Assembly: GCA_965267575.1 (NCBI GenBank)
Contig: OZ254086.1
Location: 288,001 to 352,000 of the forward strand
DNA length: 64,000 nt
Source of the DNA: Calditrichales bacterium
Lineage (GTDB): Bacteria; Calditrichota; Calditrichia; Calditrichales; J004
Direction: 5' to 3'
This document shows positions 4,637-51,309 of this stretch, piece by piece. The translations under genes were made by a program, and so were the position numbers. The notes under the pieces were generated by a model. The model did not search any database and was not told where the DNA came from. It saw only the letters and a program-made list of their open reading frames with translations. Within the stretch, counting starts at the first letter, position 1; each line of letters starts with the position of its first letter.

Positions 4637-5629
4637 ATGTCCGAAGAAAATAATCTTATGAAAGCCTTTAGATTTAAGAAATACGGGTTGCCCACTGTGC
4701 TTGAGATTGAAGAAGTTGCAAAACCGGTACCGGGCGACGAGGAGGTGCTGGTGAAAATCCACGCCGCTGCCATCAATGACTCGGATTGGGGACTGGTAAG
4801 GGGCAAGCCATTTGTGATTCGTCTGTTCTACGGTCTTAAAAAACCAAAAATAAATATTCCGGGCGTGGATATTTCAGGCAAAGTAGAAGCGCTGGGCAGT
4901 AACGTGAATTCCTTCAAAGTCGGTGATGAGATTTACTGCGACTTGTCGGAATGCGGCTTTGGCGGGTTTGCCGAATATGTGTGTGTTCCGGAAAAAGTAT
5001 TATCCAAAAAGCCTTCCAACATTAGTTTTAATGATGCCGCTGCTCTGCCCCACGCCAGTCTGCTGGCACTTCAGGGACTGGTGGAAAAGGGAAAGGTCAA
5101 ATCCGGACAGAGTGTCCTCATCAACGGTGCCGGGGGAGGTGTGGGCACCCTGGGACTGCAAATCTTAAAATCATACGAGCTCAAAACTACAGGCGTCGAC
5201 AGCGACGAAAAACTTGATATGATGAAAGCGTTGGGATTTGACAACGTGATCGATTATAAAAAGGTGGACTTCACCGAAACCGGAGAAAAGTATGACCTGA
5301 TCCTTGATGCAAAATCAAACAGGTCCGTATTTAAATACGCTCGCTCGCTCAAAAAGAACGGCACTTACGTCACAGTCGGTGGATCGATGTACCGGTTGTT
5401 CGAAATACTATTGCTGGGGTCACTCATTTCGCTTTTCAGCAGCAAGAAGCTGAGCGTACTGGGCCTTAAACCCAATAAGGGACTGGACCGGATTTCCGAT
5501 CTTGTGGAAAAGGGACAAATAAAACCTGTTGTTGACGGCCCCTATAAGTTTGATGAAATCCCGCGGCTGCTTCAATACTTTGGTGAAGGCAGGCACAAGG
5601 GAAAGATTGTGGTTGAAATAAAAAAATAA
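4637..5629 (+). CDS. NAD(P)-dependent MDR-family oxidoreductase (alcohol dehydrogenase/quinone reductase-like)
   Basis: GroES-like N-domain, GGFAEYVCV, INGAGGGVG, C-terminal GKIVV. Confidence 0.9.
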   Translation: MSEENNLMKAFRFKKYGLPTVLEIEEVAKPVPGDEEVLVKIHAAAINDSDWGLVRGKPFVIRLFYGLKKPKINIPGVDISGKVEALGSNVNSFKVGDEIYCDLSECGFGGFAEYVCVPEKVLSKKPSNISFNDAAALPHASLLALQGLVEKGKVKSGQSVLINGAGGGVGTLGLQILKSYELKTTGVDSDEKLDMMKALGFDNVIDYKKVDFTETGEKYDLILDAKSNRSVFKYARSLKKNGTYVTVGGSMYRLFEILLLGSLISLFSSKKLSVLGLKPNKGLDRISDLVEKGQIKPVVDGPYKFDEIPRLLQYFGEGRHKGKIVVEIKK

Positions 5630-5653
5630 TGTCACAAAAAACGATATACTCCG

Positions 5654-6085
5654 ATGAATTATCCAGGCTTAAATACCTTCCCTGTTAAAACCTTCGATAA
5701 AATCCGCTATGCCGATACGGACTGCCAGGGGCATGTGAACAATGCCGCTTTTTTGACCTTCCTGGAAACGGGCCGCGTGGAGATTTTATACAACCCCGAA
5801 AACGCCCTTCTCGCGCAAGGGGCCAGCTTTGTCATTGCCTCTCTGAAGCTGGATTTTCTGAAAGAGATCAACTGGCCCGGCCGGGTGGATATCGGCACGG
5901 GGATTTCCAAAATCGGCAACAGCTCGATCACCTTTTACCAGCAGCTGTTTCAAAACGGAGCCTGTGTCGCAAGTGCTGAAACGGTTATTGTGCAGGTAGA
6001 TGACAATAATGGCAAAAGCAAGCCTTTAACGGAGGGCGCAAAGAAAAGGCTGGCCGCTTGGCTGTTGGCCGAGAGCAAAGCCTGA
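5654..6085 (+). CDS. acyl-CoA thioesterase (4HBT/hotdog family)
   Basis: RYADTD..GHVNNA motif. Confidence 0.9.
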   Translation: MNYPGLNTFPVKTFDKIRYADTDCQGHVNNAAFLTFLETGRVEILYNPENALLAQGASFVIASLKLDFLKEINWPGRVDIGTGISKIGNSSITFYQQLFQNGACVASAETVIVQVDDNNGKSKPLTEGAKKRLAAWLLAESKA

Positions 6086-40526: not shown

Positions 40527-43500
40527 ATGAGATATTCACGCTTTATTCTTATTTGCCTTTCTTTTCTGTTTCTGGTTTCGGCCACTGTGCAGGCTTCGGA
40601 CGCTTTTAAAGAAGCGCGTCTGCAATACATCAAAGACCGTGAACTGCCGGCGCAGATTGAGTTTAAGCAGCAGGCGCCCACGGCGGATACTTTTTTTGAT
40701 GGTTTCCGCAGCCGGTTTAAGGTTAGTGAGGAAAACAGTTTCAGGGTGACTGCTGAACAGCGGGACAACCTGGGCCAGACACACCTGCGTTACAAGCAGT
40801 ATTACAAAAATGTCGAAGTGGACGCGGTCCAATACATTCTTCACACGCAGAATGAGCGGGTCATGAAAGCCAACGGCCATCTTGTGCGCGGCCTTGATCT
40901 GGATGTGACGCCAAAGCTCAATGAGCAGCGGGCCCTGGAGCGGGCGCTGAATCATGTAAGCGCCGAGACCTACATGTGGGAAAGCAAAAAGAATGAAGCG
41001 GCGCTTAAGCGCGAACAAAACGATCCCCAGGCTACCTTTTACCCCAAAGCGCAGCTGCTGGTTAGTGCCGGACGCAATACCCTGAAAGCTGAAAACTTCC
41101 GCCTGGTTTACCGTTTTGACATCTATGCTCAAGAACCCTTTGGGCGCTATTACGTGGATGTGGACGCACACACAGGTGAAGTGGTCGATCAGCTTACGCG
41201 CATTCACACCGGCGATGTGGACCTGTTGGGTGAATCCCTTTACAACGGCCGCGTGGACATGACCGGTTCCGATGAGTCCTTTCCTTCGATTTTGCCGGCG
41301 GTGTGGCACCTGGATGACTTTAACGCCTACGGCGGCGAAGGCTTTAGCTGGTGGATGGGCGATGAAGGCATCGGCGGTTATGACAATGACTGGTATAAGG
41401 TGCTGGATACCGATCCCGTTTACCTGGAAAACGGCGGCACGCTGACCTTTGTGCACCGCTACGGTTTGGAAGAGCCGGGTGGCGAGCCCGCGGGCTATAA
41501 TGGCTGGGACGGCATCAACGTGCGCATCTCCACGGACGGCGGCTATACCTGGGAAGTTTTGACCAATCCTTCCGTGGCCTACAGCCGCAGCAGTTTGTAC
41601 AGCTTTGGATTCCAGCACGGTGAAGGCGAAGGCGTACCCGGCTGGACCGGCGTGCAAAACAGCTGGACCGAAGTATCGTTCGACCTCTCCGCTTATGCCA
41701 ACCAGAACGCGCGCATCCGCTTTGCGTTTGCTTCCGACCCGGGCTATGCCACGGCGGATAACAGCGCCCTGTTCGGCTGGCAGGTAGATAATATTGAGAT
41801 AAAGGATGGCAATGACGCTTCCGTTTTGAGCAACAGCGGCGTGGCCGATTTTGTCACCGCGCGCAATAAAGAAGAGATTGTACCCGGAAAATACCGCCTG
41901 CGTTCGGTGGCACGAAGCGGCGTTTACACCTTCGATGCCCTGAACGGCACTAGCTATTCCCTTGCCGTGGATGTGGTTGACAACGATTCGCTCTTTGCCG
42001 ACAGCCGTCACGGAGCAGGCGTAAGCGCGCACTGGGGCAGTGAGAAATCGTACGACTATTTTTATATTTACCACGGGCGTGACAGCTACGACGACAACGG
42101 CTCGCCGATCCTGAGCTATGTCCATTTCGACGACGGCTATTTCAACGCTTTTTGGGATGGACAGCGCATGACGTTTGGCGACGGCACCAGCAACGCTTCC
42201 CCGCTTACCAGCGTGGATGTGGTGGCCCATGAATTGACACACGGCGTTACCGGCAATTCGGCTGGCCTCATTTACCGTGATGAGTCCGGCGCCCTGAACG
42301 AATCATTCAGCGATATTTTTGGAACGGCGGTGGAGTGGTACGCGGAAGGCGAAAGCTTTGATTACCTCATAGGCGAGGATTTTCAGACATTGCGCAGCAT
42401 GAGCAGCCCCAACCAGTTTGGCGATCCCGATACATACCAGGGCCAGAACTGGAACTTTGATCCCAACTTTGACAACGGTGGCGTACACATCAACAGCGGC
42501 GTGCAGAACAAGTGGTTCCACCTGCTGGTTGAAGGGGGCAGCGGAACAGACGATAACGGACGGAGCTACACTGTTTCCGGCATCGGTATGGAAAAAGCGC
42601 TGCAAATCTCATATCGCAACCTTACCGTTTACCTGACGCCCTCATCCGAGTATTTTGACGCGCGGCTGGGCGCGATCAATTCAGCGGCCGATATTTACGG
42701 CGGCGATTCCCCTGAGTACCAGGCCGTGATCGATGCCTGGGATGCCGTGGGTGTTTACTATCCGACATTTGAGCCCAATATCGTGGCCGATGCCGATACG
42801 CTGAATTTCCTGGCAGAAGCCGGCGTAGGCGTGGACAACGGTAAAGTCTCCTTCACCAATTATGGTTTGGATACGCTTGAAATTACTTCGGTGGAGCTGG
42901 TGAATAACAACGGCTTTACAATTGAAGCCGAGCTGAACCTGCCGCTGGAACTGACCTACGAGCAGAGCCTGACGTTAAACCTGCTTTTCGCCCCGGTTGA
43001 AGCAGGCAGCCAGGTTACCGAGCTTACCATGCAAACAAACGATCCCGCCAATCCAACCATGGTGATTGCCCTGAACGGTAAAGGCTACGCCATCAGCGCC
43101 GCCCAGGAAGGAACAATCTACGCGGTCTCTTCTGCTTCGGCGGTTTACAACGTGGACGCAAGCGGCGCGGCGAGCAAGCTGGGCGACAGCGGCTTTGAAG
43201 AGATCACCGGGATGGCCGTGCGCACCTCCAACAAGGAGCTGATCGGCTTTATGCTGGATAACAGCAGCACGCGTCTTGTACGCATCAACAGTGCCGGTGG
43301 CGATGCCTACCTGTTCCGTGATGTGGATGAGACACAGCTGCGCGCCATGGCCTTTGATTCGGACAGCGATTCGTTGTTTGCCATGCGCTACACCAGCGGG
43401 CAGCTTTACCATGTGGACATCAACAGCGGCGCGGCAACGGCTATCGCTTCAACCGGCATACGCCGCGTGGAGAGCATGACGCTTGATCCGATATCCGGTA

Positions 43501-44060
43501 AACTGTATGCCGTAACGCAGCAAAACGCCCTGTATGTCATCGACCGCACGGATGGCTCCAACAGCAACATCGGCGCGATTAGCATGGACAACGTGCGCGC
43601 CCTGGCCATGGATGAAAACGGCCAGCTTTTGGGTATCGCCAGCGGCGAAAGCGAAGATCAGCTTGTGGTGATCAATCCGGCCAACGCGGTAGCCACGGTG
43701 ATTGGCGGCGCGGGTGTGAGCGGCTTAAACGGCCTGGCGGTTTATGGCACCAGCCCGGTCACTTCCCTTGAGGATGAAGCTTTGGCGCAACAGCCCAATG
43801 TATTTGCCCTGGAGCAGAATTATCCCAACCCGTTCAACCCGTCCACGGTGATAAGCTATGCCTTGCCCAAAGCCAGCACGGTATCGCTTTCCGTTTTTGA
43901 TGTAACGGGCCGTGAAGTGGCGCGACTTGCCGAAGGCAGCCAGCCGGCGGGCATCTACAGCGTCACCTTTGATGCGTCGGGTCTCTCCAGCGGACTCTAT
44001 TTCTACAAGCTGCAGGCCGGTAGTTTTGTGCAAACCCGCAAAATGTTGCTTGTACGATAA
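40527..44060 (+). CDS. M4 (thermolysin-family) metalloprotease, multidomain, with C-terminal sorting domain
   Basis: FTP/PepSY propeptide; [32 protein letters not shown]. Confidence 0.92.
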
Positions 44061-44086
44061 ACGGACTTTAAAAAGTCCACTCTCGG

Positions 44087-44113
44087 AAGGCCGTCCATTG
44101 GGCGGCCTTTTTT
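44087..44113 (+). terminator. intrinsic terminator
   Basis: AAGGCCGTCC-att-GGGCGGCCTT followed by a T-run. Confidence 0.8.
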
Positions 44114-44159
44114 GTTTGCGTGGAATAAAAGAAAGGTTTGAAGTTAATGGTCTTGGGGT

Positions 44160-44285
44160 TATTAACGACCTTCAGGATAAGCGGCGCAATGCGCTCTCCA
44201 TGTTAGTGATGAATTAAATGGTAACTCAAATCTATAAACCAAGCAAGGCCAGTGAGTTGCGTCCGCTTGATGCCGTGGTTATGCG
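44160..44285 (-). repeat. canonical attC site
   Basis: Minus strand CGCATAAC..ATcAAGCGGaCGC...GCGCCGCTTAT..GTTAATA, two extrahelical bases. Confidence 0.85.
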
Positions 44286-44353
44286 ACAATGAGTCGTGAT
44301 GGAAACACTTCCCTCTGTTTAGATTATTCAGTTCTAAAATTGCGACAAAGCGT

Positions 44354-45163
44354 TTAAAACTCAACAGTTGGTTCCGGTTGATACAAAACATTAGTGTATT
44401 CACCCATAGCTGCGAGGCCCTGATTAATCCATTCGACCAAGCCGCTGTTGACTTGCGGCAATAGCGAAACTTCCACGACAAGCATCGTAAAGAGGCCTAT
44501 CCAATATACCCGATGAACGGCTCCGTGAGAAAACCAGTCATATAGGATCCCGATAATTATAAATAAACTACAACTGAGGGCGCCTATTGGCAGGGACAAG
44601 GGATGAAAACCGCTTAGGAACAGAATCAATCGAAAGAAACCAGCTCCAAGACCTATTGCGCTGGCAATAATAATCAGTCTCTTGTGAGCCTGAAGACGGT
44701 TCTTTATGGCCATATAAATACCGGCAGAGTAGAATAAAACGAAAAGAACCAGATTCGAAAGTATCAGCGCACCATAAAGTAACCACACCTGGGGCTCTCC
44801 TGTACGCATTGCCTCTTCTACACGGACGGTCAGTACAAGGATGCCGGTCAGCGTCATTATAATAACTAACACAATACTAAACCGACCCAGGGTCATATGC
44901 AGGGTATCCTTTCCCTTGGCCATCAATATTGCTTGGAGGGGAAACAGCAGATACCAAAGAAAAAAGGACCAACCATGCAGGTGTAAGGGAAACCCCGCCG
45001 GTGCATATGTGCCACTAATAATTGGTCCAAAATACGTGAAAGAGAATCCCGCAAAACCGGTTATACTGATCAGAATGGCAAGCGCTGGATAAAAGAGGTA
45101 ATCTCTATTTGTTTGTATTGTGCTTAGATTCATTTTTCCCAGAATACTCATCCGTAATCCCAA
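44354..45163 (-). CDS. multi-pass membrane protein (cassette gene); start uncertain
   Basis: About 7 hydrophobic segments with His residues (LHLHG, LHMTLG, AHKRL). Confidence 0.75.
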   Translation of the reverse strand: MGLRMSILGKMNLSTIQTNRDYLFYPALAILISITGFAGFSFTYFGPIISGTYAPAGFPLHLHGWSFFLWYLLFPLQAILMAKGKDTLHMTLGRFSIVLVIIMTLTGILVLTVRVEEAMRTGEPQVWLLYGALILSNLVLFVLFYSAGIYMAIKNRLQAHKRLIIIASAIGLGAGFFRLILFLSGFHPLSLPIGALSCSLFIIIGILYDWFSHGAVHRVYWIGLFTMLVVEVSLLPQVNSGLVEWINQGLAAMGEYTNVLYQPEPTVEF

Positions 45164-45198
45164 ATATCTTTAATATACTGATTTTGAATAGCATGAGC

Positions 45199-45324
45199 CG
45201 CATAACGCTGCATTTCAGCCGCCGCCTCGACGGACTATCGCGCATTAACTAACTTCATATTAACTACCTAATATTCCAAGACCACCATGCTTCGCTCGGT
45301 CGGCTGCAAATGTTTTGTTAGGGC
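45199..45324 (-). repeat. canonical attC site
   Basis: Minus strand GCCCTAAC..CATTTgCAGCCGaCCG...CGGCGGCTGAAATG..GTTATGCG. Confidence 0.88.
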
Positions 45325-45334
45325 CCTTGGATCT

Positions 45335-46447
45335 TTACGCATTTTTAAAACTAAAATAAAAATGTTTATCACCTATTGGTATACCACTTTTTTGAAGCAT
45401 CAATTCTTTCATTAATTCTGGGCTTATACCAAAAATATATTTTTTATCTTTTTTTAGCTGTATTTTAAAATATTTATTAGTAGGGGTTAAATTAGGATTC
45501 TTTATTAAAATACAATTTCCTTCTTTTTTAGAAATAAATGCAAAATACTTTGATTTGCACAAATTAAAATACTTTCTCAATTCATTATTCCACTTATTTT
45601 CCCACTCTTGACGCCCTAAAATCATACTTTCTGAATTCATCAATATTTTGGGATGTTTCGTTATACTAGATGAAGTAACCCAAACATTATCCCTAACTAA
45701 ACATGTTATAATATCAATAAATTCATATTCTTTTAAATCCCGTGTTATTTCTTCTTTGTTCGAAAATTGTATTGTAAAATTTGATAAATCAGGTGGATAT
45801 AAGATATAAGTTATATCTTTGTGCCAAAAAAATCCCTCCTTATCAATACCTGCTCCAAATATGCCCCCACCTACATTCGATTTCATTAAAGGATTATGAA
45901 TGCCTAAATATTGCATAAAGCATAGCATGGATTGTAGCAAATGTTCAGAATCTATATTGCCGCTCTTCATATAATTCAAAAGGCCTTCTATAATAATTCT
46001 TATCTCATTATTCAAACTTCCCATTGATGCTAAAGAATCAAAAGAATGAAAAATTTCTGGCTCCTTATTAAACCATCCCATAAGAAAGGAATCTTTTTCA
46101 CTATTATATCCCATTAATATAAATTTTGTGGGTTGTTCAATTAAGGTTGGATTTGATTTAGATATTTCTACTAATGATTCTTGAATGTCCATATAGGATA
46201 GTTTTATCTTTAATTCGGAAACAATTTTTTGTGCTGTAGTAACATCTCCACTATAGGATACAGCTATGTAATTTGTTAAAGGAATAATTTTTACGCCAGT
46301 TTCTTCGACAACTTCGCCTTTAATATTTCTCTCTTGGAGTTCTCCGAATGACGAGAATGACTCAGTTGGTTCTTTGTAGTGAGTTATAGCTGTATCGCTT
46401 ATACAGAATACTGAATTTTGATGTTTCCATGCCAAAACGTATGTCAT
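45335..46447 (-). CDS. proteasome-beta/HslV-like Ntn-hydrolase candidate with C-terminal extension (cassette gene)
   Basis: Met-Thr start, Asp at mature position 17, K-x13-G, MGS and VGG motifs. Confidence 0.62.
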   Translation of the reverse strand: MTYVLAWKHQNSVFCISDTAITHYKEPTESFSSFGELQERNIKGEVVEETGVKIIPLTNYIAVSYSGDVTTAQKIVSELKIKLSYMDIQESLVEISKSNPTLIEQPTKFILMGYNSEKDSFLMGWFNKEPEIFHSFDSLASMGSLNNEIRIIIEGLLNYMKSGNIDSEHLLQSMLCFMQYLGIHNPLMKSNVGGGIFGAGIDKEGFFWHKDITYILYPPDLSNFTIQFSNKEEITRDLKEYEFIDIITCLVRDNVWVTSSSITKHPKILMNSESMILGRQEWENKWNNELRKYFNLCKSKYFAFISKKEGNCILIKNPNLTPTNKYFKIQLKKDKKYIFGISPELMKELMLQKSGIPIGDKHFYFSFKNA

Positions 46448-46470
46448 AATATTAACCTATTATATTATGT

Positions 46471-46579
46471 GCCCTAACGCTGGGCATAACGCGCTGGGCA
46501 ATACACTGTCTAAGCCCATGCACTTCTCGAATTGGCTAAAGGCGTGATCCAGTCGCCGTTGATGCCCTTGTTATAAGCT
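46471..46579 (-). repeat. canonical attC site
   Basis: Minus strand AGCTTATAAC..GGGCATcAACGgCGaCTGG...CCAGCGCGTTATGCCC..GTTAGGGC. Confidence 0.88.
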
Positions 46580-46591
46580 ACAAAAGTTAAA

Positions 46592-47095
46592 TTAAATGCC
46601 ACCATTTTCAGTTTTGTAGTATTTCCATTTTTTGGTTTTACAATTGAACTTAAAAAATATAGTAGTCCAATCACTTAAAGAAATGGAATAGTTAAGATTG
46701 ATCTGATTCTTGGAAACATTTTTAACTAATTTCCCATGATATGGAATAACAGTAATTTCAATCAGATCATTTTTGACTTTTAGTGGAAATATTTTCACTT
46801 GAATTAACGTGTTACCATTTTTATTGTAAATATATTCTTTATTTGTATCGGTTAAAATTGTGATCTCTTTTCCATTTACTAAGTCTGGTATATTTTTAAA
46901 AAGACTAGTTTCTTCAAGATAGATAGTTTCATATTTAAATGGATTGACAGAATATCTTGAATAAAATGAATCTATTTCGACTGTGTATTTTTCCAATGCA
47001 ATTAAATAAAGGGAATCATTTTCACTCACAGATTGTGCCTTGATGAAAATCATTGGCAGAAATATAATAACTAGTATTAATTGTGATTTTTTCAT
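46592..47095 (-). CDS. secreted hypothetical protein (first cassette)
   Basis: Signal peptide; bounded by GTTATAAGCT and AGCTTATAAC. Confidence 0.75.
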   Translation of the reverse strand: MKKSQLILVIIFLPMIFIKAQSVSENDSLYLIALEKYTVEIDSFYSRYSVNPFKYETIYLEETSLFKNIPDLVNGKEITILTDTNKEYIYNKNGNTLIQVKIFPLKVKNDLIEITVIPYHGKLVKNVSKNQINLNYSISLSDWTTIFFKFNCKTKKWKYYKTENGGI

Positions 47096-47426
47096 TCTAT
47101 CATTTCACAGTTAAAGCTTATAACAAGTATTAGACGTACTAAAATCCATGTTATAACATTCCTAATTATGAAAATTTATATGTGGAAAAAATTCCATATA
47201 AGACGCCTATAGCGTGGTATAGATGGAAAATTTTCCATATAAAAACACGGTTTTAGTAACCCTATTTTATTTTACACTAATATAACCACGAATATCTGAA
47301 ATAACAGCTTTTTCTGCACCGTTTAACAAATATCCCAGCCTTTAATATTGGCGTTTGATTTTGTCTTTCAGGCAACTTTGTTTGCGGAAACCGATGAATC
47401 GGTTTGGAGAGTATTATGTGCGTTTG

Positions 47427-47720
47427 TACCCACGTCTGAAGTCGTGGGATAAGGGTTTCAGAGGCAGATCATTAACCCATGACTTAAGTCATGGGTAGGA
47501 AAAAAAGACAAGACAGCAGGATGGGCAGGATTTATTATATGGCAAATTCGGCGCGAAATCATGTCCCCCTTAGAAAAGGGGGCAAGGGGGTTGTCCTTCA
47601 CCTATAATGGCAAAAGCCGCATTTACAACCCCTCAATCCCCTTTGTTAAGGGGAAAGCAGGTACTCAGGTTATTTATAAAACTTAATTTCTTTTATCCTG
47701 CCCATCCCGTTAATCCTGTC
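47427..47720. repeat. nested cluster of REP-like palindrome families
   Basis: CCCACG..CGTGGG and CCCATGAC..GTCATGGG; CCCCCTT..AAGGGGG pair; GGATGGGCAGGAT/ATCCTGCCCATCC pair. Confidence 0.7.
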
Positions 47721-47728
47721 AAAACATA

Positions 47729-50700
47729 CTACCTAAGCAAGATCATCTTGCGCACGGCGCGGTAGCCCTGGGCCTCTATGCGGTAGAAGTATGTGCCGGA
47801 AGCTACCTCTCGGCCCAGATGGTCACGGCCGTCCCAGACCACTTCATGCCTCACGCCGGCGGAGTATTTACGGGCATCCAGCAGACGCCGCACGATGGCG
47901 CCGCGGATATCGTAGATAGTCAGATTCACCGGCGCGTTTTCCGCCAGGCTAAAGGCGATCCGCGTAGTGGGGTTAAAGGGATTGGGGTAATTGGGCATAA
48001 GGTTAAACCGCGCGGGCCCCTTCACAAAGGATTTCTCCAGCGTGGTCAGCGTTCCCTGGATCTCGATATTGTCGATGGCCCAGCCCCAACCGTTCACAAA
48101 CGGGTCGGCAAAGAGACGGAAACGGATCAGGATCGTATCACCGGCGCTGAAATGATCCAGTAAATTCAGCTCGTGGTCCACGTAGAGATCAAATTCGCCA
48201 TCCTGGTCGTTTGTGTAGGCATCCAGCCAGGCCTGATCGTAACGGGCATCGTAGCCGTCGGCCAGCGGAATCCAGTCCGCCGCGTTCTTCGTGGCCTCCA
48301 CAACCACGTAATCCCAGAAATCTTCATCACCAAACTGGCTGCCGGATTCACCCGGTTCAATCAGCGCGATGTCGCGGTAGCGCATAAAGGCGTTATCGGC
48401 GCTAACCTTGATCGGGCTGGACAACGTATAGGTAATGCCGCGGTCGTTTTCATAAGGGTGATCGCTGTGAATGGCCCAGTCGCGGTTAAACTTATTGACC
48501 AGTTTGCGTTGAAAGCCCTCGCCGAAGAAATCCTCATCGCCGCCATCGCTGAAGTCATTGGTATAGGTATCGCGCGGGGCGGCCAGAATGTAAAATTCCG
48601 CGTCGCGTTCTTCACTGCGCAAAGGGCGATCGTCTTCATACGAAACCAGCTTCAGGGTGACCGTTTGCGATTCCTGCCCGTCAAAAGGCGCCACGAACGT
48701 GGTATCCCCTTCGGCGGAAGCGCCCAGCGAATAAATCCATACATCATTGGCATACACGCGCGTGGAGTCGTAATTGCCGCGCAGCGAAGCATTGATTTCA
48801 AAACCGGGTAGAGGGTTGTATTGCGCGCTGTTGAAGCGCGGAGATAAAGCTACTTTGGGAGGCTCATAACCGGAAAGCTGCCCCAGGCTGATCGTCCAGA
48901 TGCCGCGGCCGTGTGTCGCCGCCACCACCTGGTCATTGACAATCTTCAGCTCAAAAACCGAAACGTTGGGCAGGTTGCCGGCCAGCGGGTGCCAGCTCGC
49001 GCCATCATCGCTGGATTCAAAAATGCCGATATCCGTTCCCGCCCACAGGATGTCCGTATCGGGGATATCCACCAACGAATAGACCGCCACATCGGGGAAG
49101 CCATTGTTGCTGCTGCTGCCGGAGCCGAAGCCGCTGATGTCTTCCCAGCTGCCGCCCCAGTTGGTCGTGCGCAGAATTTTTGGCCCCTGGGCGTAAGAGA
49201 ATAAGGCATAGGCCGTCTGCTCATCCGTGGAGTGCGTGGCAATACCGCTGATGCGTCCCAGCGGGTTTTCGTTGTAGCCGCTTACCGTGCTAAAGGTGTA
49301 GCCGCCGTCCGTGGACAGATAGAGGCGATCGTTGCTGTTAAAGTTGCGCCCTGCCCAAATGGTTTGCGGGTTGGCCGTAGAGATTTCGATATGGGTAAAA
49401 CTGCTGGTGCCGACCCAGCCGGCGGGACTGGCCACAAGCTCCCAGCTGCTGCCAAAATCGGCCGAGCGGTAAATGCCGGAAGCCCCCGCCGCAAAAACCA
49501 CATCCGGGTCCTGCTGCGATCCGGCGATCTTGGTGTAAAAAGGCGCGTTGCCGCTGCCCGTTTCAAGGCCAATCGTGGCGGAACTAAACGACTGCCCGCC
49601 ATCGCTGGATTTGGAGATGCCGTTAAACTGGCTGGAGGCCAGGATCAGGTCGGGGTTCGTGTAATGCCAGACGGTCTGGAATCCATCGCCGCCTTTGCGC
49701 ACAATCCAGTTGGAGCCGGCATCCGCATCAACACCGGCCGGCGACTGGTACGTATTGTTGTCCTGCATGCCGCCAATGTATTCGCTGGCGCCGTTTTTCT
49801 TATCCACGCCGTAAAACTGCGAGGTGTTGTAGCCGTTTTCCGTGTGGCTGAATGTGCTGCCGCCATTATCCGAGTAAGAGACGCCACCGTCATTACAAAC
49901 AATCATGCGGTAGCTTTGCGATGCCGAATCGGTTACGACCATGACGATATTATGCTGGTCAACATGCACGCCCTTGCTGCTGCCGCCAAATTGCCCGTAT
50001 CCGTCGGTTACAACCGTTGTTTCAATTTTGTCATCATTCTCCACATCGATGCGCCACAGGTTTATGCCCCCAACAAAAACGATGTCTTCATCAAAGGGAT
50101 GCACATTGATGGTATTGTCGTACCAGCCCTGGCCGCCCAGCCAGTTGTAGGCGCTGCCGGTTTTTTCCGAGGCTGCCGCCCAGGTCTGACCATAGTCGCG
50201 CGAGATGTAGAGCGTAGCTCCGGTGCCTGACGCACCTCCATCAGCTGAAATATAAAGCCGTGATGGATCGGTGGGCGCCACAGCAATCTCCATCCGCCCA
50301 ACGCCGCTGAACGGCGCGGAAACGAGGCTCCAGCTTTCACCGCCGTCCTCAGAGCGCGCCACGCCCGTGCCCTTAACCGTGGCATATTGCCGGCTGAAAT
50401 CGGTCGGGTCGGCGATAAGGTGCTCTATGCGACTGCTGTTGCTGTATTCTTTGCTCCAGTTTGCACCGCCATCTGTGCTTTTCCAGATACCGGAAGAAGA
50501 GGCCGTGGAGCTGTTGTGGTTAAATCCGGCGGCCGTGGAAGCCAGAATGATATTTTCATTATCCGGGTCGATGGCCAGCCGCGTCACATTCTGGAAATCC
50601 AGATTGGAGGTGCTTTGCAGCAGTTGCCAGCTGGCGCCGCGATCCGTTGTTTTCCAGATGCCGCTGCCGTCAACCTGGTCCACGTTGCCAAAGCCCTCGC

Positions 50701-51292
50701 CTGTTCCCACGTACATCACATCGGGATTGGATGGCGCCTGCACGATCGCACTGGTGGCAAAATTGCCCAGATCCGGCGTCATTAGCGTCCAGCTTTGGCC
50801 GGCATCCGTTGTTTTCCACACCCCGCCGCCAACCGAACCGGCATAAAAGGTGCCGGCCGTCGGATCATCGGCATCCACAACCAGGCCGCGCGTGCGTCCC
50901 GAAACATTGCCCGGTCCGCGCTCCACCCACGTAGCCAATCCGCTGCTTTTTTGCAGTGTGCTTTTGCGCTGCTGCCACTCGGCGATGCTGCTCACATTAT
51001 AGGCCTTCAGCAACTCGCTAACGCGATAATTGAAAGGATATGCCGGCCCGCCCTCGCGGTAACGAATGCCATAAAGGTATTCATAAAATTTATCCGGGGC
51101 ATCCATCCGCAGCATGCCTTTTACGCGCTGCTTGCGTTGGGCAACTGCCTCATCCGCCTGCGCTTTCTTTTCGATCGCCGCCTTGCGGATAGTGGCATCA
51201 TCGCTAATAACCGGTGCTTTGGTCAGAATATGCTGCAGGCCGGTAAAAGCCGCGGCAAGGATGATCAGCGTGATAAACAGACGCTTGGCCAT
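47729..51292 (-). CDS. BNR/sortilin-type beta-propeller protein (glycosyl hydrolase-like) with FlgD-like C-terminal sorting domain
   Basis: Many (S/T)xDGGxSW Asp-boxes; [20 protein letters not shown]. Confidence 0.85.
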   Translation of the reverse strand: MAKRLFITLIILAAAFTGLQHILTKAPVISDDATIRKAAIEKKAQADEAVAQRKQRVKGMLRMDAPDKFYEYLYGIRYREGGPAYPFNYRVSELLKAYNVSSIAEWQQRKSTLQKSSGLATWVERGPGNVSGRTRGLVVDADDPTAGTFYAGSVGGGVWKTTDAGQSWTLMTPDLGNFATSAIVQAPSNPDVMYVGTGEGFGNVDQVDGSGIWKTTDRGASWQLLQSTSNLDFQNVTRLAIDPDNENIILASTAAGFNHNSSTASSSGIWKSTDGGANWSKEYSNSSRIEHLIADPTDFSRQYATVKGTGVARSEDGGESWSLVSAPFSGVGRMEIAVAPTDPSRLYISADGGASGTGATLYISRDYGQTWAAASEKTGSAYNWLGGQGWYDNTINVHPFDEDIVFVGGINLWRIDVENDDKIETTVVTDGYGQFGGSSKGVHVDQHNIVMVVTDSASQSYRMIVCNDGGVSYSDNGGSTFSHTENGYNTSQFYGVDKKNGASEYIGGMQDNNTYQSPAGVDADAGSNWIVRKGGDGFQTVWHYTNPDLILASSQFNGISKSSDGGQSFSSATIGLETGSGNAPFYTKIAGSQQDPDVVFAAGASGIYRSADFGSSWELVASPAGWVGTSSFTHIEISTANPQTIWAGRNFNSNDRLYLSTDGGYTFSTVSGYNENPLGRISGIATHSTDEQTAYALFSYAQGPKILRTTNWGGSWEDISGFGSGSSSNNGFPDVAVYSLVDIPDTDILWAGTDIGIFESSDDGASWHPLAGNLPNVSVFELKIVNDQVVAATHGRGIWTISLGQLSGYEPPKVALSPRFNSAQYNPLPGFEINASLRGNYDSTRVYANDVWIYSLGASAEGDTTFVAPFDGQESQTVTLKLVSYEDDRPLRSEERDAEFYILAAPRDTYTNDFSDGGDEDFFGEGFQRKLVNKFNRDWAIHSDHPYENDRGITYTLSSPIKVSADNAFMRYRDIALIEPGESGSQFGDEDFWDYVVVEATKNAADWIPLADGYDARYDQAWLDAYTNDQDGEFDLYVDHELNLLDHFSAGDTILIRFRLFADPFVNGWGWAIDNIEIQGTLTTLEKSFVKGPARFNLMPNYPNPFNPTTRIAFSLAENAPVNLTIYDIRGAIVRRLLDARKYSAGVRHEVVWDGRDHLGREVASGTYFYRIEAQGYRAVRKMILLR

Positions 51293-51309
51293 GGTATGTC
51301 CTTTCAATG

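Follow-up and report, generated by a model that had tools for sequence, protein, structure and literature searches.

A predicted proteasome-like Ntn hydrolase with an additional C-terminal domain encoded in an apparent integron-type cassette array of a Calditrichales bacterium

Introduction

In a 64,000-nucleotide stretch of the genome of a Calditrichales bacterium (GenBank assembly GCA_965267575.1, contig OZ254086.1, positions 288,001 to 352,000 of the forward strand; hereafter the window), a low-GC island separates two genes for type IX secretion system (T9SS) cargo proteins and harbors three consecutive minus-strand open reading frames (ORFs), the middle one of which encodes the 370-residue protein studied here. 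Proteasome-like peptidases are usually regarded as core, ring-forming machines that are fed by ATPases. A first-pass annotation made from the sequence proposed instead that this gene specifies a cassette-borne, stand-alone threonine protease of the proteasome-beta/HslV type with a long C-terminal tail, plausibly an anti-phage or toxin effector.

Distant relatives of the proteasome have been surveyed previously, and 22 uncharacterized homologues were catalogued (Fuchs, Alva and Lupas 2021; PMC8665760). The authors of that survey describe these 22 as lacking both propeptides and AAA+ partners and as having an uninformative gene context, and assign C-terminal domains without known structure to the subfamilies RPC, DAH and 'DGH'. 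They also define the T1-type peptidases by a catalytic triad of Thr1 or Ser1, Asp17 and Lys33, together with Gly47 of the oxyanion hole (PMC8665760).

Results

Organization of the locus

The features of the locus are collected in Table 1. The gene has a GC content of 0.25-0.31 and the island one of 0.25-0.46, against 0.52-0.60 in the flanks. All sequence strings quoted in the first-pass annotation, which gave no strand, are present in the ORF.

Table 1 Features of the proteasome-like gene, its predicted protein domains and the surrounding island (window coordinates).
Feature	Position	Strand	Basis
Coding sequence of the proteasome-like protein, 370 aa, ATG start, stop codon included	45335..46447	-	ORF list, sequence
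Thr2 codon, predicted N-terminal nucleophile after loss of Met1	46442..46444	-	conservation, HslV alignment
Asp18 codon (equivalent of proteasome Asp17)	46394..46396	-	conservation, aligned to HslV Asp
Lys53 codon (equivalent of proteasome Lys33)	46289..46291	-	conservation, HMMER and hhalign alignments to HslV
N-terminal proteasome-like Ntn-hydrolase domain (predicted), residues 1 to ~222	45782..46447	-	Foldseek, VIA-align, profile
Family-specific insertion, residues 24-45, SSFGE, between strands S3 and S4	46313..46378	-	hhalign gap, conservation
C-terminal domain (predicted), residues ~241-370, no recognized fold	45338..45727	-	model, structure searches
Gene cassette, 1,272 nt, single ORF, TTAGGGC to G of next GTTATGC	45206..46477	-	boundary complement
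attC-like site of the gene's cassette, R'' GCCCTAAC ... R' GTTATGC	45199..45324	-	sequence; fold z -1.0
attC-like site of the upstream cassette, R'' GCTTATAAC ... R' GTTAGGGC	46471..46579	-	sequence; fold z -1.66
attC-like site of cassette 3, R'' CGCATAAC ... R' GTTAATA	44160..44285	-	sequence; fold z +0.14
Upstream cassette 1 ORF, 167 aa, signal-peptide-like N-terminus, no family	46592..47095	-	ORF list
Downstream cassette 3 ORF, 269-aa multi-pass membrane protein, weakly DUF2306-like	44354..45163	-	ORF list, PF10067
Low-GC island between two T9SS cargo genes, containing the cassette array	44061..47728	.	GC, flank annotation
M4 thermolysin-like T9SS cargo, Por_Secre_tail	40527-44060	+	island flank, annotation
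Sortilin/BNR-repeat T9SS cargo, Por_Secre_tail	47729-51307	-	island flank, annotation

Conservation of the predicted active site

The protein begins MTYVLAW...DTAIT, which places Thr at residue 2 and Asp at residue 18. A word-indexed search identified four close homologues with 71-74% identity, each 370 residues long and without indels, and an exhaustive HMMER search over 1.84 billion representatives recovered 450 family proteins at E<=1e-3, of which 172 also pass a threshold of 1e-10 and 14 one of 1e-30. Conservation was determined from an alignment of 151 sequences, comprising the query and all listed matches with no pre-selection and omitting only the near-identical P0002-P0004.

Among 154 family proteins, 125 start with MT and 7 with MS, and the second residue is Thr in 132 and Ser in 5 of 138 aligned N-termini. 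Asp18 is retained in 142/144 relatives and Lys53 in every one of 147. Lys53 and Gly67 both fall in KIIPLTNYIAVSYSG with a spacing of 14 residues, and Gly67 (146/147), the equivalent of the oxyanion-hole Gly47, coincides with the FAG motif of HslV in the hhalign alignment. Further along, ASMGS contains Gly143 (147/148) and Ser144 (131/148), VGGGIFG contains Gly193 (145/149) and Gly194 (149/149), and Trp208 and Asp211 are kept in 146 and 141 of 149 sequences, respectively. Additional conserved elements are the family's own, namely S32-S33-F34-G35-E36, V47-E48-E49, Q179, R252 and S260. Judged from these sequences, the motif pattern exceeds chance, and the Thr1/Asp17 pair, the Lys-Gly spacing and the two glycine-rich motifs, which the first-pass annotation had read from the single sequence, are borne out by the relatives.

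Homology to HslV and the 20S proteasome

Considered alone, the protein is barely recognizable as a proteasome homologue. Its match to the Pfam proteasome family PF00227 reaches E 0.24 and 11.5 bits over residues 48-85 (gathering cut-off 22.4), that to the archaeal proteasome beta model TIGR03634 reaches E 0.0023, also under cut-off, and a phmmer search of the single sequence against the sequences of the Protein Data Bank (PDB) yielded no match; all three results speak against a proteasome relationship. The two weak matches do cover the Lys33 region. As the protein scores under the PF00227 cut-off, it is to be regarded as a relative outside the current Pfam model and not as a Pfam member. Across the family, 24 of 107 members match PF00227 (best E 1e-4, sub-threshold), any other Pfam family being matched by one member, and the long member P0095 passes the cut-off with 25.3 bits.

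The relationship emerges from the family profile. Built from the 107 members and compared to the PDB, it matched 162 sequences at E<=10, and all 60 listed are HslV or 20S subunits, with HslV 4hnz as the best match (E 2.4e-7); the alignment places Lys53 onto Lys33 and G143-S144 onto the GSG motif. Likewise, hhalign aligned the profile with the genome's own HslV at 90.3% probability (E 1.4e-6), pairing Thr2 with the first Thr of HslV, Asp18 with Asp17 and Lys53 with Lys33. The profile also recognizes the housekeeping HslV of 25 out of 60 related genomes, with E values between 1e-5 and 1e-7. The hslV-hslU pair of this genome sits elsewhere and is readily recognized by NCBIfam (295 bits for HslV, 641 bits for HslU); no HslV model is among the NCBIfam matches of the cassette protein, whose neighbors are unrelated cassette ORFs without an adjoining hslU.

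Predicted fold of the N-terminal domain

An AlphaFold2 model computed with a 107-row alignment displays high confidence (pLDDT 94.8, pTM 0.93). Foldseek found at least 500 PDB matches at E<=1e-3; those listed are proteasome subunits, and the top ones among them are 20S beta subunits, led by 1iru_J (E 5.7e-9, TM 0.68 on the target). VIA-align, run against a library of 48,161 chains, similarly ranked a 20S beta subunit highest (Z 17.6, rmsd 2.8, 187 aligned residues), followed by Anbu (15.0), HslV (14.2; 1m4y), BPH (11.8) and connectase (10.4; 6zw0). In the model, strands are followed by H1 (69-82) and H2 (88-104), further strands, H3 (147-161), H4 (167-190) and final strands, and this predicted order with two helix pairs, H1/H2 and H3/H4, is proteasome-like. 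Based on homology, the modeled fold and the conservation of the catalytic residues, we conclude that the protein is a relative of proteasome-beta/HslV-like N-terminal nucleophile (Ntn) hydrolases. The first-pass annotation had named a fold other than Ntn, or Thr, Asp and Lys not being conserved, as findings that would speak against its assignment; the predicted fold is of the Ntn type, and all three residues are conserved.

Non-proteasome Ntn hydrolases, i.e. TANGO2, NAAA, ceramidase and acylases, score Z<=10.1. Integron cassettes often carry resistance enzymes, and with NAAA, acid ceramidase, penicillin acylases and bile-salt hydrolase as distant structural matches (Z 7-10) the protein could be conceived as an amidase acting on a small molecule or another non-protein amide such as a lipid, a cell-wall fragment or an antibiotic, a classic type of cassette cargo. 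We regard this as highly improbable, because sequence and structure both group the protein with the proteasome family and not with the acylases, the Thr/Asp/Lys triad is typical of proteasome-type peptidases, and the protein is without a signal peptide, many acylases being periplasmic.

In comparison to HslV (ClpQ), the best relative at the sequence level, the protein has Thr1, Asp17, Lys33, the GS(G) motif and the fold in common; it is, however, twice as long, it has a 22-residue S3/S4 insertion and the extra C-terminal domain, and it is mobile cassette cargo without an adjoining HslU rather than the product of a core gene. The 20S beta subunit, the best structural match, equally shares the catalytic triad and a Gly47 position 14 residues past the Lys, but the protein differs from it in starting with Met-Thr without a propeptide, in an identity of 12-16%, in the absence of an alpha-subunit gene near its own and in the added insertion and domain.

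These nearest structural matches (20S beta, Anbu, HslV and BPH) form rings, which would be compatible with a self-compartmentalizing, ATPase-independent protease of the BPH/Anbu type that clears unfolded or damaged proteins and carries its C-terminal domain outside the ring. Such a function appears unlikely to us. The extra domain and the strongly conserved insertion, presumably located beside the active site, fit a specific substrate better, and a single gene that moves freely would be a hazard if it encoded a bulk protease active in the absence of a propeptide and a gate.

The S3/S4 insertion and the C-terminal domain

Against the genome's HslV, hhalign leaves a gap of ~20 residues ahead of the Lys, in agreement with the ~19 residues estimated in the first-pass annotation. 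It corresponds to residues 24-45, between the strand bearing Thr22 and the strand preceding Lys53, a segment modeled without a helix and mostly in non-helical conformation. Of 146 sequences, 105 have S32, 121 S33, 121 F34, 137 G35 and 112 E36. The strong conservation of this SSFGE insertion suggests a functional role, presumably near the active site. In connectase, the S3/S4 site is described as carrying a mobile lid, which lies over the active site and provides specificity, and PMI-5 and PMI-6 are reported to bear S3/S4 insertions, too (PMC8665760).

Connectase (MJ0548) is, by the same description, a monomeric proteasome homologue with an S3/S4 insertion over the active site, some variants of which possess a C-terminal domain (PMC8665760). 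Insertion at this signature site, the extra domain and the presence of connectase 6zw0 among the structural matches would thus fit a sequence-specific protein ligase or transpeptidase of the connectase kind instead of a hydrolase. This appears quite unlikely: the connectase Z of 10.4 is well under the 14-17.6 of proteasome, Anbu and HslV, and connectase, an archaeal ligase with a two-helix lid, is without H1 and H2, the first helix pair, whereas the model has both and an insertion that is not two-helical. Moreover, the published account of connectase confines it to methanogens, where it has a dedicated target (PMC7980362).

The first-pass annotation was right in noting an extra C-terminal part, but what it took for an extension of ~160 residues is, according to the model, a folded domain of ~130 residues (~240-370) that follows a lower-confidence linker. 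Modeled alone (232-370), it reaches pLDDT 92.8 and pTM 0.82, and R252 and S260 are conserved in 129 and 127, respectively, of ~144 sequences. VIA-align of this domain against the same 48,161 chains did not exceed Z 5.4, a value obtained over 51 residues, and placed a single chain at Z>=5, Foldseek against the PDB returned 0 matches at E<=1e-3, and no Pfam family besides PF00227 recurs among the 107 members scanned. No known fold is thus recognized in the modeled domain, which does not prove a new one.

Members also vary in length. Long forms of 569-605 residues (P0073, P0080, P0081, P0085, P0095, P0124 and P0150) carry ~240 additional C-terminal residues without a Pfam match, and short forms of 212-245 residues span the N-terminal domain only and may be gene fragments.

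The cassette array

Each of the three consecutive ORFs is surrounded by GTT-anchored boundary complements of 8-10 nt, the downstream copy of which ends in AAC, with R' located 29-43 nt 5' of each start and R'' 10-68 nt 3' of each stop. In the cassette of the proteasome-like gene, the start GTTAGGGC (46478-46471) and the R'' GCCCTAAC (45324-45317) are reverse complements of each other. The length of this pair was reached in 4/300 local shuffles, that of the cassette 1 pair GTTATAAGCT/AGCTTATAAC in 0/300 and that of the cassette 3 pair GTTATGCG/CGCATAAC in 9/300. When folded, each R''...R' interval forms an imperfect hairpin in which the R box is paired and bases bulge out. Such an arrangement is the signature of integron cassettes.

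An integron integrase scoring over the TIGR02249 cut-off of 265 is absent from the entire genome. The best match to this model is a 298-aa XerC/D-like ORF ~46 kb from the array (127.6 + 99.7 bits), which lacks profile positions 180-237, the IntI-specific segment; it is located at G000:C1:286556-287374, ~0.6-1.4 kb ahead of the window start. With no IntI in the genome, the array would be a cluster of attC sites lacking integron integrases (CALIN). Cassettes of CALINs likewise consist of single ORFs that look promoterless, and behind each ORF comes an imperfect palindrome with ...AAC and GTT... at its borders; each cassette start is complementary to its own R'', and the composition is foreign to the host. 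The array differs from them in containing only three (perhaps four) cassettes and in attC-like sequences that are not repeated elsewhere in the genome.

Two measures count against this interpretation. The hairpin energies of the attC-like sites are no better than those of shuffled sequences (Table 1), and the region-wide count of GTT-anchored 8-mers is 4 versus a shuffle mean of 1.91 and a maximum of 6, i.e. without excess. Two attC detectors that scored stem complementarity could not tell the window sites from shuffles, and Rfam gave no match in 43900-47900 at E<=1. The promoter and terminator scan of the region revealed nothing above chance; with 11 promoter-like sites versus 15.0 expected, none above chance is located 5' of the gene, a point against the overall proposal made below. 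The boundary complements at all three ORFs support an array of three (perhaps four) integron-type cassettes, and hence the cassette-borne nature of the gene put forward in the first-pass annotation.

The cassette 1 protein yielded one sub-threshold, chance-level Pfam match only, the cassette 3 protein matches PF10067 at E 1.5e-4, under cut-off, and none of the three cassette proteins has a match in PHROGs.

Three non-coding segments beside the array are recorded here as separate observations. At 47139-47253, just 5' of where the first cassette begins, the sequence contains a pair of palindromic direct repeats of 25 nt each (47177-47201 and 47218-47242). Contigs of run X1 break at this segment, and two short records span the gap; the first matches the window exactly (depth 19.5), whereas the second, in the opposite strand orientation, has 8 differences (depth 17.6). 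Runs X5-X7, under the same species label, contributed no contigs at 41000-51000. The segment could be invertible, reflect a strain mixture or be an assembly-graph effect of the quasi-palindrome. A 49-nt hairpin at 47112-47160, GTTATAAC ... GTTATAAG, with an 8-bp stem, ends at the R' that opens cassette 1 and may be a degenerate or minimal attC, or a remnant of an attI-side boundary. Finally, 47430-47660, part of the 600 nt of non-coding DNA that separate the array from the Sortilin/BNR gene, contains a 29-nt inverted repeat (47566-47594 / 47625-47653) along with several hairpins rich in GC, without an Rfam match at E<=1.

Distribution, mobility and neighbors

Within the phylum, the gene is present in 1 of 86 genomes searched, which is the source genome itself (G000), in a single copy, and 60 closer related genomes yielded HslV-level matches only. 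A pattern-seeded scan of contigs from one genome per species identified 25 loci, a sample biased by the patterns used. The hosts are Nostoc, Anabaena, Halotia and Cyanobium, gamma-, beta-, alpha- and delta-proteobacteria, Anaerolineales, Lacipirellula and a Bacteroidetes metagenome-assembled genome, so that the family occurs in records of Cyanobacteria, Chloroflexota, Planctomycetota and Bacteroidota. Twenty-two loci were analyzed, leaving out L027 and L028 (125-residue matches) and L033 (22-residue match). A metagenome scan with the single protein found no relative, and a second one found two distant loci, L034 and L035. In total, the family comprises at least 450 clusters at 50% identity, none of which has a Pfam, NCBIfam or source name; the source names read 'hypothetical protein' throughout, including in a cluster look-up of 10 relatives.

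The family is horizontally mobile. In 7 of the 22 loci, the GC content of the gene is at least 0.08 under that of its own locus. When 21 loci were tested for the cassette boundary signature, it was detected in two from Cyanobium, L023 (5979-7150; 2/300 shuffles) and L017 (~410-1632; 5/300), which encode proteins 28-29% identical to that of the window and carry near-identical attC sites; the site of L023, CAACCTAAC followed by an imperfect palindrome and then GTTAGGC, is canonical, and that of L017 likewise runs CAACCTAAC ... GTTAGGC. The location of two Cyanobium homologues in attC cassettes indicates that the family is repeatedly cassette cargo. L026 (9/300) and L030 (8/300) were also low in the shuffle test and are not counted, because their matches are distant from the ends of the gene.

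Four loci (L009, L010, L014 and L015) contain integrase, transposase or group II intron genes, and two (L019 and L022) contain genes of toxin-antitoxin type. In L015 (5043-5795, minus strand), a 251-aa tyrosine recombinase is encoded divergently, 205 nt from the family member; its best NCBIfam match is the integron integrase, at 95 bits far short of the 265 required, and the recombinase may represent a decayed IntI. A tblastn search of plasmid and phage records with P0001 and P0010 was without a match, and an IMG/VR viral contig (L061) contains a 350-aa member at 5001-6053 in an accessory region, with a gene for an AAA_25 replication ATPase on one side and genes for a ParB-N6-methylase and terminase gpA on the other.

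Considering 117 neighboring ORFs at the 22 loci, no neighbor family recurs beside the gene, and no unfoldase recurs; a DUF815/AAA ATPase is encoded two genes away in one locus, L021. With none adjoining the gene in the window either and hslVU located elsewhere in the genome, the stand-alone arrangement without an ATPase partner, as initially suggested, holds.

PADLOC models match 11 of the 117 neighbors at E<=1e-8, and several of these are housekeeping look-alikes (SMC, UvrD, ABC transporters, group II intron reverse transcriptase). Credible defence-like neighbors are found in ~4/22 loci: an AriA/OLD-like ATPase and PDC-S50 in L009, a SngA-like protein in L021, PDC-S02 in L022 and a methyltransferase fragment in L030. 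Together with carriage by an integron-type cassette, the patchy distribution pointing to horizontal transfer, toxin-antitoxin, integrase or transposase genes near 6/22 loci and the member in the accessory region of a phage contig, they would be in line with a single-gene abortive-infection protease, whose C-terminal domain senses a phage component and whose Thr protease domain cleaves a specific host or phage protein. We consider this possible, if doubtful. PADLOC-DB 2.0 contains no family matching the protein at E<=10, ~18 of the 22 loci have ordinary housekeeping or unannotated neighbors, the neighbor tally is a raw count set against no background rate and hence shows no enrichment, and the phage-borne copy equally fits counter-defence. 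The anti-phage or toxin effector of the first-pass annotation is therefore speculation, with weak circumstantial backing, and for a toxin in particular the cassette, containing one ORF only, leaves no immunity partner.

Discussion

Based on the conserved catalytic residues, the predicted fold and the genetic setting, we propose, at a probability of roughly two in three, that the protein is an autonomous cytoplasmic Thr-type Ntn hydrolase that operates as a substrate-specific peptidase or transpeptidase, and not as an ATPase-fed bulk protease. Met1 would be removed by methionine aminopeptidase, without a propeptide being involved; Thr at the second position permits this removal. The exposed Thr would then serve as both nucleophile and general base, its alpha-amino group and hydroxyl attacking the amide bond with the assistance of Lys53 and Asp18 and with Gly67 at the oxyanion position, as in HslV and the 20S beta subunit. 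Since a propeptide and a partner are lacking and the cassette has no space for a second gene, the protein itself would have to provide control and specificity, the candidate elements being its C-terminal domain and the conserved SSFGE insertion at the S3/S4 site. The gene presumably moves as a single-ORF cassette of the integron type, here residing in a CALIN and gained from a low-GC donor, and travel in this form suggests a function that is self-sufficient and accessory. Met1 removal, catalytic activity, specificity through the insertion and the C-terminal domain, and any biological role are what we infer from these comparisons; the comparisons themselves show the homology, the modeled fold, the conserved catalytic residues, the cassette architecture, the occurrence in a single genome of the phylum and the lack of a recurrent partner.

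A role in defence or conflict is doubtful on present grounds. In its most explicit version, the protein would be a one-gene cassette immune protease, the first of the proteasome family, in which detection of a phage component by the C-terminal domain opens the SSFGE lid, so that a cut in one specific host or phage protein aborts the infection, and phage-borne copies would provide superinfection exclusion or counter-defence; we judge this somewhat less likely still.

With regard to the homologues catalogued in 2021, the family resembles them, as far as they are described there, in being distantly proteasome-like and bacterial, in having neither a propeptide nor an AAA+ partner nor informative surroundings in the genome, and in that the C-terminal domains of some are structurally unmatched; it may be one of the 22 subfamilies. 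Two comparisons by description narrow the choice. RPC, with which the C-terminal domain is the only common feature, is excluded, because it is described as H2-less and as occurring in Proteobacteria only, whereas H2 is present here (88-104) and the taxonomic range is wider, with relatives in Nostoc, Anabaena, Cyanobium, Anaerolineales and Lacipirellula. An H3/H4 insertion described in addition for PMI-5 and PMI-6 excludes these two, the H3-H4 loop being short in the model (~5 residues). The survey names WP_085249540.1 (DAH), WP_152342571.1 (GPH) and WP_140207863 (RPC) as subfamily representatives (PMC8665760). Our literature search found no paper describing the family beyond this survey, and two integron-cassette preprints mention no proteasome or protease cassette.

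In conclusion, we here describe a two-domain, partnerless member of a very large unnamed family of proteasome homologues that apparently moves between phyla as a single integron cassette. Cassette carriage, the family size and a confident two-domain model are new here; if it turns out that the 2021 catalogue already includes the family, the novel points would be its cassette mobility, its true size and the high-confidence model. The finding would extend the known cargo of integron cassettes by a class of protease, and one gene in one cassette may offer a clean handle on a stand-alone proteasome homologue and its second domain.

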